64,000 bases of DNA from Eledone cirrhosa (taxonomy: Eukaryota): positions 59,148,001 to 59,212,000 of the forward strand of contig OZ024741.1 in NCBI GenBank assembly GCA_964016885.1, in the 5' to 3' direction. The stretch's first letter is position 1. Every line of letters starts with the position of its first letter. The notes under the pieces are model-generated. The model was not told the origin of the DNA. It did not search any database and was given only the letters and a program-made list of their open reading frames with translations. This document shows positions 26,064 through 46,603 of the stretch, piece after piece. The position numbers and the translations under genes are program-made.

Positions 26064-26985
<922 letters not shown>

Positions 26986-26990
26986 ATATG

Positions 26991-27155
<165 letters not shown>

Positions 27156-27328
27156 GTATATATATATGTATATATATATATATGTATATATATATGTATA
27201 TATATGTATATATATATATGTATATATATATGTATATGTATATATATATGTATATATATATATGTATATATATATGTATATATATATATGTATATATATA
27301 TGTATATATATATATGTATATATATATG

Positions 27329-27359
<31 letters not shown>

Positions 27360-27402
27360 GTATATATATATGTATATATATATATGTATAAATATATATA
27401 TG

Positions 27403-27433
<31 letters not shown>

Positions 27434-27570
27434 GTATATATATATATATATGTATATATATATGTATATATATATGTATATATATATATGTATATATATA
27501 TGTATATATATATGTATATATATATATGTATATATATATGTATATATATATGTATATATGTATATATATG

Positions 27571-27601
<31 letters not shown>

Positions 27602-27602
27602 C

Positions 27603-27657
<55 letters not shown>

Positions 27658-27668
27658 GTATATATATG

Positions 27669-27702
<34 letters not shown>

Positions 27703-27718
27703 TATGTACATATATATG

Positions 27719-27772
<54 letters not shown>

Positions 27773-27774
27773 TA

Positions 27775-27820
<46 letters not shown>

Positions 27821-27834
27821 TATATATGTATATA

Positions 27835-27906
<72 letters not shown>

Positions 27907-27928
27907 TGTATATATATGTATATATATG

Positions 27929-27985
<57 letters not shown>

Positions 27986-28068
27986 GTATATATGTATATA
28001 TATATGTACATATATATGTATATATGTATATATATATATATATATGTACATATATATGTATATATATG

Positions 28069-28125
<57 letters not shown>

Positions 28126-28166
28126 ATGTACATATATATGTATATATATATGTATATATATATATG

Positions 28167-28213
<47 letters not shown>

Positions 28214-28214
28214 G

Positions 28215-28263
<49 letters not shown>

Positions 28264-28345
28264 GTATTATATATATGTATATATATATGTATATATATAT
28301 ATGTATATATATATGTATATATATATATACATGTATATATATATG

Positions 28346-28378
<33 letters not shown>

Positions 28379-28423
28379 GTATATGTATATATATGTATAT
28401 ATATATGTATATATATATATATC

Positions 28424-28476
<53 letters not shown>

Positions 28477-28487
28477 GTATATATATG

Positions 28488-28540
<53 letters not shown>

Positions 28541-28621
28541 GTATATGTATATATATATATGTATATATATATATATGTATATATATATATGTATATATAT
28601 GTATATATATGTATATATATG

Positions 28622-28700
<79 letters not shown>

Positions 28701-28816
28701 GTATGTATATGTATATATATATATGTATATATATATATATGTATATATATATATGTATATATATGTATATATATGTATATATATGTATATATATATATAT
28801 GTATATATATATATTG

Positions 28817-28863
<47 letters not shown>

Positions 28864-28956
28864 GTATATATATGTATACATGTATATATATATGTACATA
28901 TATATGTATATATGTATATATATATATATATATGTACATATATATGTATATATATG

Positions 28957-29013
<57 letters not shown>

Positions 29014-29038
29014 ATGTACATATATATGTATATACATG

Positions 29039-29069
<31 letters not shown>

Positions 29070-29082
29070 GTACATATATATG

Positions 29083-29115
<33 letters not shown>

Positions 29116-29129
29116 GTGTATATATATAT

Positions 29130-29586
29130 AGTGGCTGCCAACTCGTTTTCGAGTACGGCCACTACTTTATATCCATGTAGGAGAACCCCTACCGATGTGC
29201 TGAACGAGTGTGACTTTTTAGTCCAGCCAGCGACTTGAAAACTCTGGTACAAACACTACACTTGTGACAATTATTGATACATAGTGCTGGGCCCATGGTA
29301 CCATGTGACGACAAGTGCAGAGAAATCTCCAGATATAAAGCAATGCCTGTGCCGTGAAGCTTTTATAGTGAGCAAAGGCACTGCACAAAGCCAGTCCCAC
29401 TCTCTTAACCAAGATGATATTTACCAAAAAGAAGAACAAGTCAACATCATTGGATACCATCAGGGTTGCAGGTGTTATATCAGAGTTTTCCTTCTCCTAG
29501 AATTCTGCCTTGACAAAGGCTAAGGGGTCATCTCTGTGATTTTGGATGGCCATTGACTCTTAAGAGCTCCTTTGCCCTTTGACAGG

Positions 29587-29587
<1 letters not shown>
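29130..29587 (+). mobile_element. About 450-bp non-autonomous element with an RTE 5' UTR-like motif
   Basis: Second copy at 48524-48969; contains GAGTTTTCCTTCTCCTAG..TGCCTT..CAAAGGCT, recalled as RTE 5' UTR-like. Confidence 0.65.
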
Positions 29588-29634
<47 letters not shown>

Positions 29635-29664
29635 CATATATATATATATATGTACATATATATG

Positions 29665-29717
<53 letters not shown>

Positions 29718-29764
29718 GTACATATATATGTATATATATATATATATATATGTACATATATATG

Positions 29765-29795
<31 letters not shown>

Positions 29796-29802
29796 GTACA
29801 TA

Positions 29803-29852
<50 letters not shown>

Positions 29853-29860
29853 TATATATG

Positions 29861-29900
<40 letters not shown>

Positions 29901-29945
29901 TGTATATATATGTATATATATGTATATATATATATATATATATAT

Positions 29946-30724
<779 letters not shown>

Positions 30725-30779
30725 GTATATATATATATATGTACATATATGTATATATATATATATGTATATATATATG

Positions 30780-30830
<51 letters not shown>

Positions 30831-30839
30831 GTATATATG

Positions 30840-30870
<31 letters not shown>

Positions 30871-30883
30871 GTATATATATATG

Positions 30884-30934
<51 letters not shown>

Positions 30935-30947
30935 GTATATATATATG

Positions 30948-31010
<63 letters not shown>

Positions 31011-31149
31011 GTATATATATATGTATATATATACATATGTATATATATATATATGTATATATATATATGTATATATATGTATATATATATATGTATATAT
31101 ATATAAATATGTATATATATATGTATATATATATATGTATATATATATG

Positions 31150-31180
<31 letters not shown>

Positions 31181-31207
31181 GTATATATATATGTATATAT
31201 ATATATG

Positions 31208-31254
<47 letters not shown>

Positions 31255-31255
31255 G

Positions 31256-31302
<47 letters not shown>

Positions 31303-31303
31303 G

Positions 31304-31336
<33 letters not shown>

Positions 31337-31363
31337 GTATATATATATGTATATATATATATG

Positions 31364-31410
<47 letters not shown>

Positions 31411-31411
31411 G

Positions 31412-31462
<51 letters not shown>

Positions 31463-31545
31463 GTATATATATATGTATATATATATGTATATATATATAT
31501 GTATATATATATGTATATATATATATATACATGTATATATATATG

Positions 31546-31578
<33 letters not shown>

Positions 31579-31609
31579 GTATATGTATATATATGTATAT
31601 ATATATATG

Positions 31610-31680
<71 letters not shown>

Positions 31681-31691
31681 GTATATATATG

Positions 31692-31740
<49 letters not shown>

Positions 31741-31752
31741 GTATATGTATAT

Positions 31753-31798
<46 letters not shown>

Positions 31799-31829
31799 GT
31801 ATATATATGTATATATATGTATATATATG

Positions 31830-31892
<63 letters not shown>

Positions 31893-32020
31893 GTATATAT
31901 ATATATGTATATATATGTATATATGTATATATATATGTACATATATATGTATATATGTATATATATATATATATATGTACATATATATGTATATATATGT
32001 ATATATATATATATGTATAT

Positions 32021-32054
<34 letters not shown>

Positions 32055-32079
32055 ATGTACATATATATGTATATATATG

Positions 32080-32110
<31 letters not shown>

Positions 32111-32117
32111 GTACATA

Positions 32118-32164
<47 letters not shown>

Positions 32165-32178
32165 GTGTATATATATAA

Positions 32179-32221
<43 letters not shown>

Positions 32222-32249
32222 TATATATATATATATGTACATATATATG

Positions 32250-32300
<51 letters not shown>

Positions 32301-32347
32301 GTACATATATATGTATATATATATATATATATATGTACATATATATG

Positions 32348-32403
<56 letters not shown>

Positions 32404-32405
32404 TA

Positions 32406-32457
<52 letters not shown>

Positions 32458-32459
32458 TA

Positions 32460-32513
<54 letters not shown>

Positions 32514-32535
32514 TGTATATATATGTATATATATG

Positions 32536-32568
<33 letters not shown>

Positions 32569-32609
32569 GTATATATATATGTATATATATATGTATATAT
32601 ATATATATG

Positions 32610-32654
<45 letters not shown>

Positions 32655-32701
32655 GTATATATATATGTATATATATATATGTATATATATATATGTATAT
32701 A

Positions 32702-32740
<39 letters not shown>

Positions 32741-32744
<4 letters not shown>

Positions 32745-33402
32745 AAGAGAGTATTGAAGTTTGCTTGAAGCATTGTGGAACAATAAGTAAATATCTATAA
32801 GTCGTTTGGAAGCCTCGACAATGCAAATGGGTAAATCTCCGGGTAACAAGGTCCGGTGGTGGAGAGAGAGATGTAAGTGGGTGTACGTTGAGCTGCGTGG
32901 TGTGTATAAGATGTGTGAGATGTGTAGAATGGAGGGAAGAGTAAAAGGCTAAAAATAAAAATAACAACACAAGAGAGAGTTACCTTGGGAGAGATTTAAT
33001 AGTCCCTATATATTTCGGATTCACATCCATCAACTGGGGTTTTTTTCCGGGGTGGGGGAAAAGGTTGTCTGTCGATATTCAAATCAGCAAACAGCGAAAG
33101 TCGCCTTCCGGACTTGTCCGACAGACAACCTTTTCCCCCACCCCGGAAAAAAACCCCAGTTGATGGATGTGAATCCGAAATATATAGGGACTATTAAATC
33201 TCTCCCAAGGTAACTCTCTCTTGTGTTGTTATTTTTATTTTTAGCCTTTTACTCTTCCCTCCATTCTACACATCTCACACATCTTATACACACCACGCAG
33301 CTCAACGTACACCCACTTACATCTCTCTCTCCACCACCGGACCTTGTTACCCGGAGATTTACCCATTTGCATTGTCGAGGCTTCCAAACGACTTATAGAT
33401 AT
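32741..33402. mobile_element. Fold-back element copy 3
   Basis: Same spacer and ends; arms appear perfectly complementary. Confidence 0.92.
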
Positions 33403-33859: not shown

Positions 33860-34577
33860 ACAACATCGAAACTAGTCCAATATTCCTTGTCTGGCTTTCT
33901 GGAGAATAGAGGAAAGGTGTTTCCTCGAAAACCAGTATGACTCTAAAAACCGGTTTGTCTGTGTGTTTACATACAGAATAGCTGGACACTCACAGAAAAG
34001 TGTCCAGTGAAAAACTCGGTACATCTACATATGTACACGTGTGTGTATTCATATGCATACTAGTATTTCAGTATACATATGTGGATGTACATTTTTAACT
34101 TAATTGTTTAAGCGTCAGTCATACAAAAGTGAGTTACAAACGAAACAAAATTTAATTTCGTTTCGTTATTTGTTTTTATCGTCTCCGCTGAACCGGTACG
34201 TACTCACGCTCTATGCAAATTAGTCTGCCCACTACTAATTTTCATAGAAAAAGCATATAACGATATGTGCTTTTACGATTCTCTAGAAAGGCCGGAAGAT
34301 AGGTAAATATTGCTGATGAGATGTAACAACATCGAAACTAGTCCAATATTCCTTGTCTGGCTTTCTGGAGAATAGAGGAAAGGCTTTTCCTCGAAAACCA
34401 GTATGACTCTAAAAACCGGTTTGTCTGTGTGTTTACATACAGAATAGCTGGACACTCACAGTAAAGTGTCCAGTGAAAAACTCGGTACATCTACATATGT
34501 ACACGTGTGTGTATTCATATGCATACTAGTATTTCAGTATACATATGTGGATGTACATTTTTAACTTAATTGTTTAT
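33860..34577 (+). mobile_element. Retrozyme-like element, about 1.5 tandem copies of a 466-bp unit
   Basis: 33860-34110 repeated at 34326-34577; canonical HHR. Confidence 0.88.
34306..34350 (+). ncRNA. Canonical minimal type I hammerhead ribozyme
   Basis: aatattg CTGATGA gatgt aaca acatc GAAA CTAG TC caatatt. Confidence 0.93.
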
Positions 34578-34590
34578 ATGTATATATATA

Positions 34591-35263
34591 TAAATATAAG
34601 TATGTATACGTACGTACACATATGTATACAGACGTACTGTAGTATGTATATATATATACATACTTGCACACATATATATATATGTACGTATGAATTCACC
34701 AAACATTTATTATAATGCTCGGTGTGTTTGTAAACAAACATCCCGAATTAAACTGTAGTGTCTAGCAACCACCGTTAATCGTTTGTTCAACACTGACAAA
34801 GGAACACTGTACTAGTTTCAAGCTTGTTAGCTATCGTCAGCAACGTATACTTTCCTGCCAGATTGTTGAACGTATATACTTACCGTATGCATATTAAAGG
34901 ATGAGTAGCCCAATTTACATATCGAGTGGGTTAATCGGCCGGGTGCACCGAAAACGATAAACGGAAAAAAGGAAACGAAATTTCATTTCCCACTCTTAGT
35001 ACGGCTGTTACTTAAATATAAGTATGTACACGTACATACATATATGTATACAGACGTACAGTAGTATGTATATATATATATATATATAGATACTTGCACA
35101 CATATATATATATGTACGTATGGATTCACCAAACATTTATTATAATGCTCGGTGTGTTTGTAAACAAACATCCCGTATTAAGCCGTAGTGTCTAGCAACC
35201 ACCATTGCTCGTTTGTTCAACACTGTCAAAGGAACACTGGCAGGAAGGTATACGTTGCTGACG
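34591..35263 (-). mobile_element. Retrozyme-like element, about 1.5 copies of a 422-bp unit plus a short inversion
   Basis: 34591-34809 repeated at 35013-35239; 35237-35263 is an inverted copy of 34836-34862. Confidence 0.85.
34804..34846 (-). ncRNA. Minimal hammerhead ribozyme
   Basis: acgttg CTGACGA t agc taacaa gct t GAAA CTAG TA cagtgt. Confidence 0.88.
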
Positions 35264-35714
35264 TGGCTGGTTATATTTATATTTAATTGGTGATAGCTCT
35301 AAGACAGTGTTTAAGCATAATAGAAATGTATATGAAGACATGTATAAGCATATATAATACGTTTATATATGATAAACGTATGGGTAGCCTCGTTGTTTAT
35401 ATATGTTTTCATATATACCTCTATTATTCTTAAACGCAGTCTTAGTGCTATCACCAAATAGATATAAGAAGGTTTGATGCTTTTTATCTTTCTTAACATT
35501 CGTGTATAGCAACCATCTAAAGCTTTGGTAATAGGTATTATTGGTGACTATGATTCACAGGAATACAGTATGATTGATTCCACTGTAGCTTTGAATAATC
35601 TAACTTTTGTTTTTGTGGTTATGCTAGATTTCCACACACCTTATCTAACGAGTTCACAGCAGACCATGCTTGTGCTATCCTGTTGGTTATATCATTTGAT
35701 GAGTTGGTGTATGC

Positions 35715-36600
35715 ATGTGGACAAAAAGAAACAGATCATTAGAAACTGACATATATTTCAAACCTACTGACTGCCGACAATACCTCCTATTTACACCTTC
35801 TCGTCCATCACACACTAGTACCAACATCCCTTTTAACTTACCCATTCAAATCTGTACAATAGTCTCAAACTACAAAATGAGTGACCACAGACCAGAAGAA
35901 ATGAAACAAATACATCTCAAGAGAAAATATCCTTAGAAATTAATCAACAATAGTTTCCAATAAGCAAGTCAAATCAATATCCAAACACTCCAAGACCCAA
36001 AAACAAAACTAGAAAAAAAGTAATACCATATATTTCAACTTTCAATCCAAAGACCACTGAGATATGCACACACATATACATATACAACTAAACTTACCTA
36101 TCTTACTAAAAGAGAAGAAAATGAAAAACATCTTACAAAAACACCCAATCATAAAAAGTTAATGACAACCAAAATCACTAAAAAGAAATACTAACGAATG
36201 CAAAACTGCAAATCATTACTAAAGAATCTGAATTTAAAAGGTGCAATCAACCTTACTGGGGAGTATGCAATGAATTTAATTTCAAAGACAGTCCCATCTT
36301 TGAAATTAAAAATAATTTATCTTGCAACTCGCAGAACTAATATATTTTATAACATGTAATGGCTGACATGAACATTATATTGGACAAATTGGCTCTTCAC
36401 TCCAAAGATGAATGACAGTTCACTGTTAACAAATCAGGGACCCACACACTAGAAATATCGCTGTAAACCAACATATGGAGGAATTCTGCCAACTTCCCAT
36501 GTCCTCCCATTATACCAGTGTAATGAAAATTTCACCCAGGAAAATTGTATTAATAAGGAAAAATTCTTCATAAGTAAATTCCAATAAAAACTCAAGTTTT
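35715..36600 (+). pseudogene. Old PLE RT-thumb/GIY-YIG remnant, distinct family
   Basis: TDIYFKPTDCRQYL...NIPFNL..QICTIVS; downstream decayed ITCNG..EHYIGQ. Confidence 0.8.
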
Positions 36601-36979
36601 CTTATTTTAAAAAAAGCCTGAATTACGTCCCTTGTAATGAACCTTATTCTCATCGATATAAGCGACGAAGATAAAACCAGTTGTGACCCTTGAGTTCAAC
36701 AAAAAACAAGCAGCCAACCACATGAGATAAGCATAAAGGAAAAACATTTTTCGAAAGACTGTAATGGAAATCTTTTTGTAAAGACTGTAAACACAGCTGA
36801 AACCAGTAAAAGTAAACAAAAATATATAAATAATCATCAAATTATTTGAATTCAGAAACTTTCTAAATAACCAAAAGATCAGTCATTGCATTTTTTAAAC
36901 ATTATTTTCCCTATAACACCCAAAGAAACCCATAACATTTTAATTTTTTCACTATATATATATATATATATATATACAT

Positions 36980-40004: not shown

Positions 40005-40760
40005 GGGAAGGAAAAGAGTCGATTGTCAGATCAGGCCAAGGAAAAGATTTTTCCATTGATCTTTCTATTGATAATACTATCTGCCAGTCACAACTTCTGG
40101 CAGAAGAAAAGAACCAATCATCAGATCAGACAAAGGAAACAATGTTTCTATTGGTCTTGCCATTGCTAATGCTATTTGTTAGTTGTAACTCATGACAGAA
40201 GAAAGGATTTGATTGTTAGATCCGACAAACAAAGCAATGTTTACATTTGATCTTTCCATCGCTGATACTATCTATTAGTCACAACTCATGGCAGAAGAAT
40301 GGATCCGATTGTTAGATCCAACTAACGAAGCAATGTTTACATTTGATCTTTCCATTGCTGATACTATCTGCTGGTCTCAACTCATGGCAGAAGAAAGGAT
40401 CTGATTATCAGATTGAATCAAGGAAACAATATTTCCATTGGTCTTTCTATTGATGATACTATCTATCAGTCATAAATCCTGGCTGAAGAAATGATCTGAT
40501 TATCAGATTGGACCATGGAAACAATGTTTCCATTTGTCTTTCCATTGCTGATACTATCTGTTAGTGACAACACCTGACAGAAGAAAGGAGCTGAATGTCA
40601 GATCAGGCCAAGGAAATAATGTTTCCATTGATCTTTCCATTGCTGATACTATCTGCTGATCACAACTGCTGGAAGAAGAAGAAAGGAACCAATCATCATA
40701 TCAGACCAAGGAAACAATGTTTGCATTGGTCTTCCCATTGCTGATACTATCCACCAGTCA
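40005..40760. repeat. Minisatellite, about 96-bp unit, about 8 copies
   Basis: CAGAAGAA recurs near 40100, 40196, 40291, 40387, 40482, 40577 and 40671. Confidence 0.9.
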
Positions 40761-46254: not shown

Positions 46255-46591
46255 TCATCATCATCATCATCATTTCATTTTACGTCCGCTTTTTCCCTGC
46301 TTGCAAGGGTGGGACGGGAACTGATGCTGGCTTGATTTCTACAGCTGGATGCCCTTCCTAACACCAACCTCATTTACAGTGAGTGCTGGGTGCTTTTTTG
46401 CCGTGGCACCTCCACGACCACTTTGCAGTGGAATGATATGGATCCCAGTCCCTATCATCTCATTTCTACAGCTGAGTAAACTGGAGCAATGTGAAATAAA
46501 GTGTCTTGCTCAAGAAAACAACACATTACCCAGTCTGAGAATTGAACTCACAACCTTTCGATTGCAAGGCCAATGCTCTAACCACTAAGCC
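46255..46591 (-). mobile_element. Full-length SINE B: tRNA head plus RTE-derived tail
   Basis: A-box TGGCTTAGTGG, B-box GAGTTCAATTC, then TTGAGCAAGACACTTTA; tail shared with the RTE 3' UTR. Confidence 0.87.
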
Positions 46592-46603
46592 ATGTGCCTC
46601 CAT

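Follow-up and report, generated by a model that had tools for sequence, protein, structure and literature searches.

The repeat boundary at position 35239 of the window, the 64,000-nucleotide stretch of DNA analyzed here, is with good confidence the middle joint of a head-to-head, two-armed retrozyme insertion started at two internal sites (consensus positions 221 and 277), its match to a predicted hammerhead cut being probably coincidental. Genuine cleavage and ligation are likely recorded by a different family member, in which a complete tRNA intron occupies the predicted scissile bond. The features of the window that bear on this reading are as follows (numbering with plus and minus signs counts from the predicted cut, +1 being the first base past it):

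34591..35239, minus strand: 649-nt main arm of the retrozyme insertion, covering the 424-nt monomer 1.5 times; its 3' end, at consensus 221, meets (TA)n
34591..34809, minus strand: unit 1, partial monomer, +1 to 221; 13 mismatches to unit 2
34785..34871, minus strand: putative type I hammerhead with a long interrupted stem I, predicted cut between 34810 and 34809; assigned by motif and fold, no Rfam match
34810..35239, minus strand: unit 2, one full monomer, +1 at 35239 and H17 at 34810; 14 mismatches to the family consensus
35237..35239, no strand: CTG microhomology at the head-to-head joint, breakpoint +4..+1
35237..35263, plus strand: inverted second arm, consensus 373-399, 27 nt only
35277..35467, no strand: fold-back (MITE-like) element with 74-nt arms, 84%; adjoins the short arm
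35721..36620 (right end approximate), plus strand: decayed Penelope-like ORF remnant, C-terminal part of an RT and GIY-YIG-like motifs by eye
33860..34576, plus strand: second hammerhead retrozyme family, 466-nt period, units 99% identical; hammerhead at 34295-34366, predicted cut between 34343 and 34344

The initial annotation had placed a hammerhead on the minus strand with its cut before cagtgttcc, and this assignment is supported by the core motif, the fold, and one compensatory pair. Read along the minus strand, CUGACGA (34840-34834), GAAA (34819-34816), and a GUA ending at 34810 are followed by cagtgttcc, giving the core CUGANGA, GAAA, NUH in order with stem I open, the arrangement of a type I hammerhead. 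Stem II comprises three pairs with a U.U at its base, stem III is minimal and palindromic, and stem I appears in the RNA fold as a long, interrupted helix (z -1.98). Across 258 ungapped family copies, every core position except N7 is conserved in at least 95%, stems II and III are invariant, and one stem I pair is U.G in 210 copies and G.U in 22, a swap that is likely to represent one inherited event. Rfam returned no match for the hammerhead of the 424-nt family, even at E<=10; the hammerhead fold is assigned on the strength of the core motif, the RNA fold, and the compensatory pair, and the ribozyme was probably active.

A direct repeat (35073-35239 versus 34643-34809, 94% identity) defines the two units of the main arm, with unit 2 stopping at 35239, the first base past the predicted cut. 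Beyond this point, 35237-35263 forms an inverted copy of 34835-34861 (27 nt, 96%), with CTG common to both. The transition from the second unit into an inverted hammerhead piece through CTG, as first described, is thus confirmed by the repeat comparison, with the proviso that the 3-nt overlap leaves the breakpoint at +4, +3, +2, or +1.

The genome carrying the window (3.0 Gb) contains 12,521 exact matches to a 24-nt anchor (+28..+5) of this family, whose copies are either dispersed or arranged as tandem arrays. A 424-nt consensus was built from 88 full monomers with a mean substitution of 3.2%. With tandem units within the 150-450-nt range, low GC (0.34 in the window region), one hammerhead each, and many loci, the 424-nt family is, by its sequence characters, a non-LTR retrozyme.

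The boundary at 35239 had originally been taken as a genomic record of the 5' end of a self-cleaved RNA, and a tabulation of family 5' ends had been set beforehand as the test; three samples show no enrichment of ends at +1, and at the family level the claim is not supported. Sample A comprises 92 of 100 rows among 391 matches, which gave 89 junctions after removal of 2 duplicates and of 1 row outside the range; the remaining 8 rows, read by eye, include none at +1, and the final-A filter used for this sample favors one phase of (TA)n flanks. Its ends span +17 to -44, with 0/89 at +1, 1 at +2, and 1 at -1 among the matches listed, which is weak evidence alone for a depletion at +1 (P=0.23) and caps +1 at <3.3% of the ends in +17..-44. 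Sample B comprises 85 distinct rows of 100 among 182 matches (3 duplicates dropped), representing 72 ends and 13 intact copies; of 12 rows left out, 10 were intact by eye and 2 were duplicates. The 72 ends are distributed as 6 at +5, 34 at +4, 4 at +3, 10 at +2, 3 at +1 (window included), 9 at -1, and 6 at -2, and when a subfamily variant is allowed, the counts from +5 to -2 become 6, 19, 6, 15, 5, 10, and 11. In sample B, +1 is the least used of the 7 positions (3/72; P=0.005 for so few if ends were flat); with microhomology allowed, it is compatible with 14/72 junctions, compared to 42 for +4 and 18 for +2. Among copies differing at -1 (141 matches), 8 true +1 ends were recognized by eye in the 100 listed, corresponding to ~18 genome-wide.

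Extrapolated to the whole genome, the share of anchored copies with an end at +1 is 0.07-0.11%, rising to 0.6% for +1..-2 and ~1.7% for +5..-2, so that ends at +1 occur in ~0.1% of copies versus ~0.24% per base; the strict estimate for +1 is 9-18 loci among the 12,521 anchored copies. More than 98% of family copies read through the cut site, in agreement with the original proposal that the internal hammerhead was left uncut or religated. The flat distribution argues that cut linear RNA was rarely the template. A small share of true cleaved ends may nevertheless be present at +1, since end rates vary with local sequence. The R2 element, whose HDV-like ribozyme cut is described as defining the 5' junction (PMC3774820), resembles what had been envisaged for the window; unlike in R2, the 5' junctions of the 424-nt family do not follow the cut, and no pile-up is seen there.

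Where ends do accumulate is at -28 to -34, the border of CUGA and stem I, with 11/89 at -30 in sample A and, in a separate listing read by eye, 12 at -30 among 100 matches listed. We considered a unique stop at -30 and rejected it: -33 and -28 are also high, so the pattern was read as CA/GT microhomology. The frequent ends at this border may reflect microhomology or a pause of the RT. Deletions starting at the cut were likewise examined by eye, with 0/30 at +1, and sense-strand breaks between -1 and +1 are not enriched (~8 by eye among 100 listed of 121, similar to -2 and +2), their partners giving no Rfam match. Two single loci deserve mention as observations in their own right. At L364 (G000:C3:298673598), a same-strand deletion removes exactly -1..-30 and joins +1 to -31, which could have arisen by ligation of a cut end to a 3' end that had been trimmed. 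At L366:1017-1083, a tRNA-like sequence adjoins a family +1 end in the opposite orientation.

The other end of the insertions behaves differently from the flat 5' ends: in 97/155 main arms, the 3' end falls precisely on 221 or 277 and meets (TA)n. Many family 5' ends are joined to a second, inverted arm of the element, which likewise stops at 221 or 277. Both ends belong to the 221/277 classes in 95 of 163 head-to-head pairs, and 80 of these 95 pair 277 with 221; the 15 like-with-like pairs include 11 that look like artefacts of a self-palindromic AT stretch. Microhomology at the head-to-head joints is mostly 0-4 nt. Mismatch at diagnostic sites amounts to 5.8% between adjacent units and 6.9% between opposite arms, versus 35.8% between random copies, and rare variants, too, are common to adjacent units and opposite arms. 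These common alleles and rare variants imply that the entire insert is copied from a single RNA or a single source locus. The family thus combines an inverted 5'-truncated arm and a microhomology joint with two fixed 3' ends, a tail at one end, and an AT-rich target, a layout of the Penelope type.

The second arm in the window is short by this standard. It lacks a 277 end, stopping after 27 nt at consensus 399 in non-(TA)n DNA, and arms elsewhere that start at 357-377 mostly continue to 221 or 277 (L153, L127, L154, L142, L073, and L365). We assume a later truncation, which is the likely explanation, and the fold-back element at 35277..35467 is a possible cause. The right flank is itself rearranged, the fold-back element adjoining a truncated repeat at 35470-35713 (87-90% to other copies). 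The Penelope-like remnant at 35721..36620 was considered as part of the window insertion and rejected, as it derives from an older family (best other copies 82%) and two other repeats lie in between.

Two alternatives for the window junction have to be set against a middle joint between two arms. In the first, the RT would have reached the 5'-OH terminus of a self-cleaved RNA at 35239, run off it, and changed template; this would explain why the maximal match ends at +1, and it draws on a hammerhead that was probably active, given the compensatory pair and the tRNA intron found at a cut elsewhere, as well as on the neighboring 466-nt family, which has extra ends just 3' of its own cut. A second copy (L365) even has the same CTG joint, with one arm running exactly from 277 to +1. 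However, the partner arm of L365 reads through the cut site, as the window arm itself does once; L153 joins the same inverted donor piece at +3; the window breakpoint is ambiguous between +4 and +1; and the three samples show no +1 excess. CTG is present only 4 times in the sense consensus, which explains the recurrence of the joint in L365. We therefore regard run-off at the cut as very unlikely, and the match of the 35239 boundary to the predicted cut as likely a chance microhomology joint.

The 27-nt inverted piece could alternatively have arisen by fold-back of the finished cDNA (CTG on CAG, 375 nt back) or by L1-type twin priming a short way upstream of the stop, in either case with subsequent end joining to the target. 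It is short, stops at 399 with no contact to (TA)n, and lies in RNA terms 25 nt upstream of the 5' end of the main arm, all of which would suit such an origin. Set against this are the arms from 357-377 at other loci, which mostly reach 221 or 277, and the rearrangement of the window's right flank; on these grounds, fold-back or twin priming appears somewhat unlikely, and the truncated two-armed insertion is retained as the preferred reading.

Evidence on cleavage itself comes from another locus. In two family copies, at G000:C2:365,192,775 and 365,193,260 (L363:1276-1294), an insert of 19 nt separates -1 from +1, precisely at the predicted scissile bond. The two copies represent both arms of a single complete 221/277 insertion in (TA)n, and they differ at 13 sites, with seven private changes each relative to the consensus and six subfamily alleles in common. 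Since both arms carry the insert and are otherwise diverged, the insert was already in the template. A search for insertions of 3-30 nt between +8 and -10 gave 16 matches, comprising 14 local duplications and these two, and the 65 matches from another search, anchored on the cut, contain no other foreign insert. In the second (466-nt) family, a foreign insert at the cut was not found, only one duplication.

The 19-mer has 8 exact matches in the genome: apart from the two arms, a C2 cluster accounts for five and C4 for one. The C2 cluster and C4 copies examined are tRNA-Lys(TTT) genes with a 19-nt intron, as identified by Rfam and by ARAGORN run with introns allowed (without the intron option, most tRNA-Lys genes are missed). 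The cluster (L401-L412; G000:C2:99.04-99.10 Mb) consists of tandem tRNA-Lys(TTT) genes with introns, spaced at 1.29 kb and about 4.7 kb and including several intron variants. The insert corresponds to the complete tRNA-Lys(UUU) intron from its first to its last base, which in the tRNA lies after A37 and before A38, and it is inserted in the same sense. In the retrozyme it sits after GUA and before +1, with the preceding A common to both parents and the 3' joint exact. The joints thus fall exactly at the cyclic-phosphate and 5'-OH ends expected of both RNAs, in the same sense, as in a chimera of the RtcB type. A 73-nt contig of public run X1 covers the chimera with no difference, including 27 nt on each side of the insert, less than the 31-nt bar for each single joint, and this run may stem from the assembly's own sample. 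No further Lys intron was found outside tRNA genes, three near-matches having unrelated flanks, and the capture counts as one event (n=1).

tRNA splicing leaves an intron with a 5'-OH and a 2',3'-cyclic phosphate, and RtcB joins such ends in animals (PMC6614914); retrozyme monomers carry the same ends, and RtcB has been proposed to close them (PMC7229834). Because hammerhead products and excised tRNA introns are both RtcB substrates, we infer joining by RtcB. The insertion, as read from its sequence, likely records cleavage at the predicted base and joining by the tRNA ligase in vivo. The predicted cut base and its religation, both part of what had been suggested for the window, thereby gain independent support from a locus elsewhere in the genome. 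In our literature searches, we found no published report of a tRNA intron captured at a ribozyme cut.

The intron could also have entered by RT jumps in an earlier round, from the cleaved 5' end to a free intron and on to the cleaved 3' end, the resulting copy then serving as source. The family shows frequent template jumps and slippage, as seen in the 14 duplications among the 16 insertions above. Against such jumps, both intron joints are clean, with no base added or lost; a single-armed source copy carrying the intron was not found in the genome; and the ends of intron and ribozyme are both substrates of RtcB. We judge this route unlikely, and it still needs cleavage at the predicted base. 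Ligation by RtcB before copying remains our preferred reading of the chimera.

Several of these characters have counterparts in described elements. Metazoan non-LTR retrozymes (Cervera and de la Pena 2020, PMC7229834; Li, Clavereau, Pollet 2026, bioRxiv 10.64898/2026.07.22.740005) are described as low-GC tandem arrays whose units, 150-450 nt long, each contain a single type I hammerhead with a weak, palindromic helix III. The 424-nt family matches these sequence features, and the U.U at the base of helix II recurs in the axolotl HHR_Amex2. Circles, RtcB, and a Penelope helper have been proposed for these retrozymes, as they are here. As far as the available text of these papers goes, they report RtcB joining in vitro and propose the rest, with no genomic ligation record of the kind found here.

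The insertion layout is similarly close to that of EN+ Penelope-like elements, which also show AT-rich targets, joints with microhomology, a tail confined to one end, and an arm that is inverted and 5'-truncated (PMC3846280, PMC8557442), and to the account of Penelope in PMC11167929, in which two internal RT start sites are used, both strands are extended, and hammerhead cleavage is not needed. In contrast to EN+ Penelope-like elements, the 424-nt family presumably lacks an ORF. Its start sites lie 56 nt apart with one used per arm, compared to a 30-40 nt tail in the parts of the Penelope papers that treat it, and the in vitro data as presented in PMC11167929 give no strand difference in start site, unlike the one-per-arm use seen here. 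A precedent for the ligation step is provided by the U6/LINE-1 chimeras that RtcB generates ahead of retrotransposition (Moldovan et al. 2019, PMC6789731; also PMC13247085), in which two unrelated RNAs are likewise joined through cyclic-phosphate and 5'-OH ends and then written into DNA. The present case differs from these chimeras, as they are described there, in that a ribozyme and tRNA splicing supply the ends to be joined, that two ligations are needed, and that a whole tRNA intron lies inside the element.

The flat 5' ends, the fixed and paired 3' ends, the common source of the arms, and the identity and position of the tRNA intron are sequence counts; cleavage, RtcB, circles, and a Penelope helper are what we infer around them. 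Tandem transcripts would self-cleave after GUA, and RtcB would join the resulting 5'-OH and cyclic-phosphate ends, mostly into circles, and rarely capture another RNA with matching ends, such as an excised tRNA intron. A putative Penelope-like RT/endonuclease would then cut (TA)n DNA and extend both DNA ends on the retrozyme RNA from the two internal start sites, consensus 277 and 221. Both cDNAs would run through the sealed cut site and stop near-randomly (about 0.25-0.4% per base), and the two would anneal by 0-4 nt of microhomology. On balance, we favor the general form of this scheme, in which retrozyme RNAs in the animal germ line undergo self-cleavage at the predicted hammerhead base, the tRNA-splicing ligase closes them and occasionally captures a tRNA intron, and Penelope enzymes then copy that one RNA onto both sides of a DNA break, using two start sites.

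At stake are the cutting in vivo by genomic hammerheads of Penelope-type elements and the ligase that closes retrozyme circles. In the sections available, PMC11167929 reports no RNA reads ending at the cut and finds cleavage dispensable in vitro, and the support for RtcB in PMC7229834 is from in vitro work only. The junction at 35239 gives no help on in vivo cutting. If our reading is correct, the intron at the scissile bond in both arms provides direct fossil evidence for the position of the cut, for joining by the tRNA ligase, and for one RNA source of both arms. Foreign RNAs with 5'-OH and cyclic-phosphate ends at ribozyme cuts would then constitute a genome-readable assay for ribozyme activity in vivo and for the ligase, and the search for introns at cuts could be applied to any genome with retrozymes.

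The second family in the window, at 33860..34576, lies tail to tail with the 424-nt copy in the same (TA)n tract. This 466-nt family is younger and related to the 424-nt family (77% over 47 nt); its hammerhead scores 38.9 bits with Rfam HH9 (gathering 52), and its stem II shows, by eye, a double change between variants. The 5' end of the window copy lies 18 nt upstream of its predicted cut. Across the family, 36/96 ends fall in +9..+1, 3 of them at +1 (P 8e-6 versus flat), making ends 2.7-fold denser in this interval than upstream of the cut; the ends were classed by eye, and a script check of 30 rows gave one class difference. The excess in +9..+1 is possibly a trace of cut templates, and TA microhomology and slippage explain part of it.

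Elsewhere in the window, a 5.8-kb (TA)n-type array occupies 26977-32745, and a 95-nt tandem repeat with 7.7 copies lies at 40020-40751. A weak tRNA-like match (29.9 bits) at 46531-46594 is perhaps the head of a SINE.
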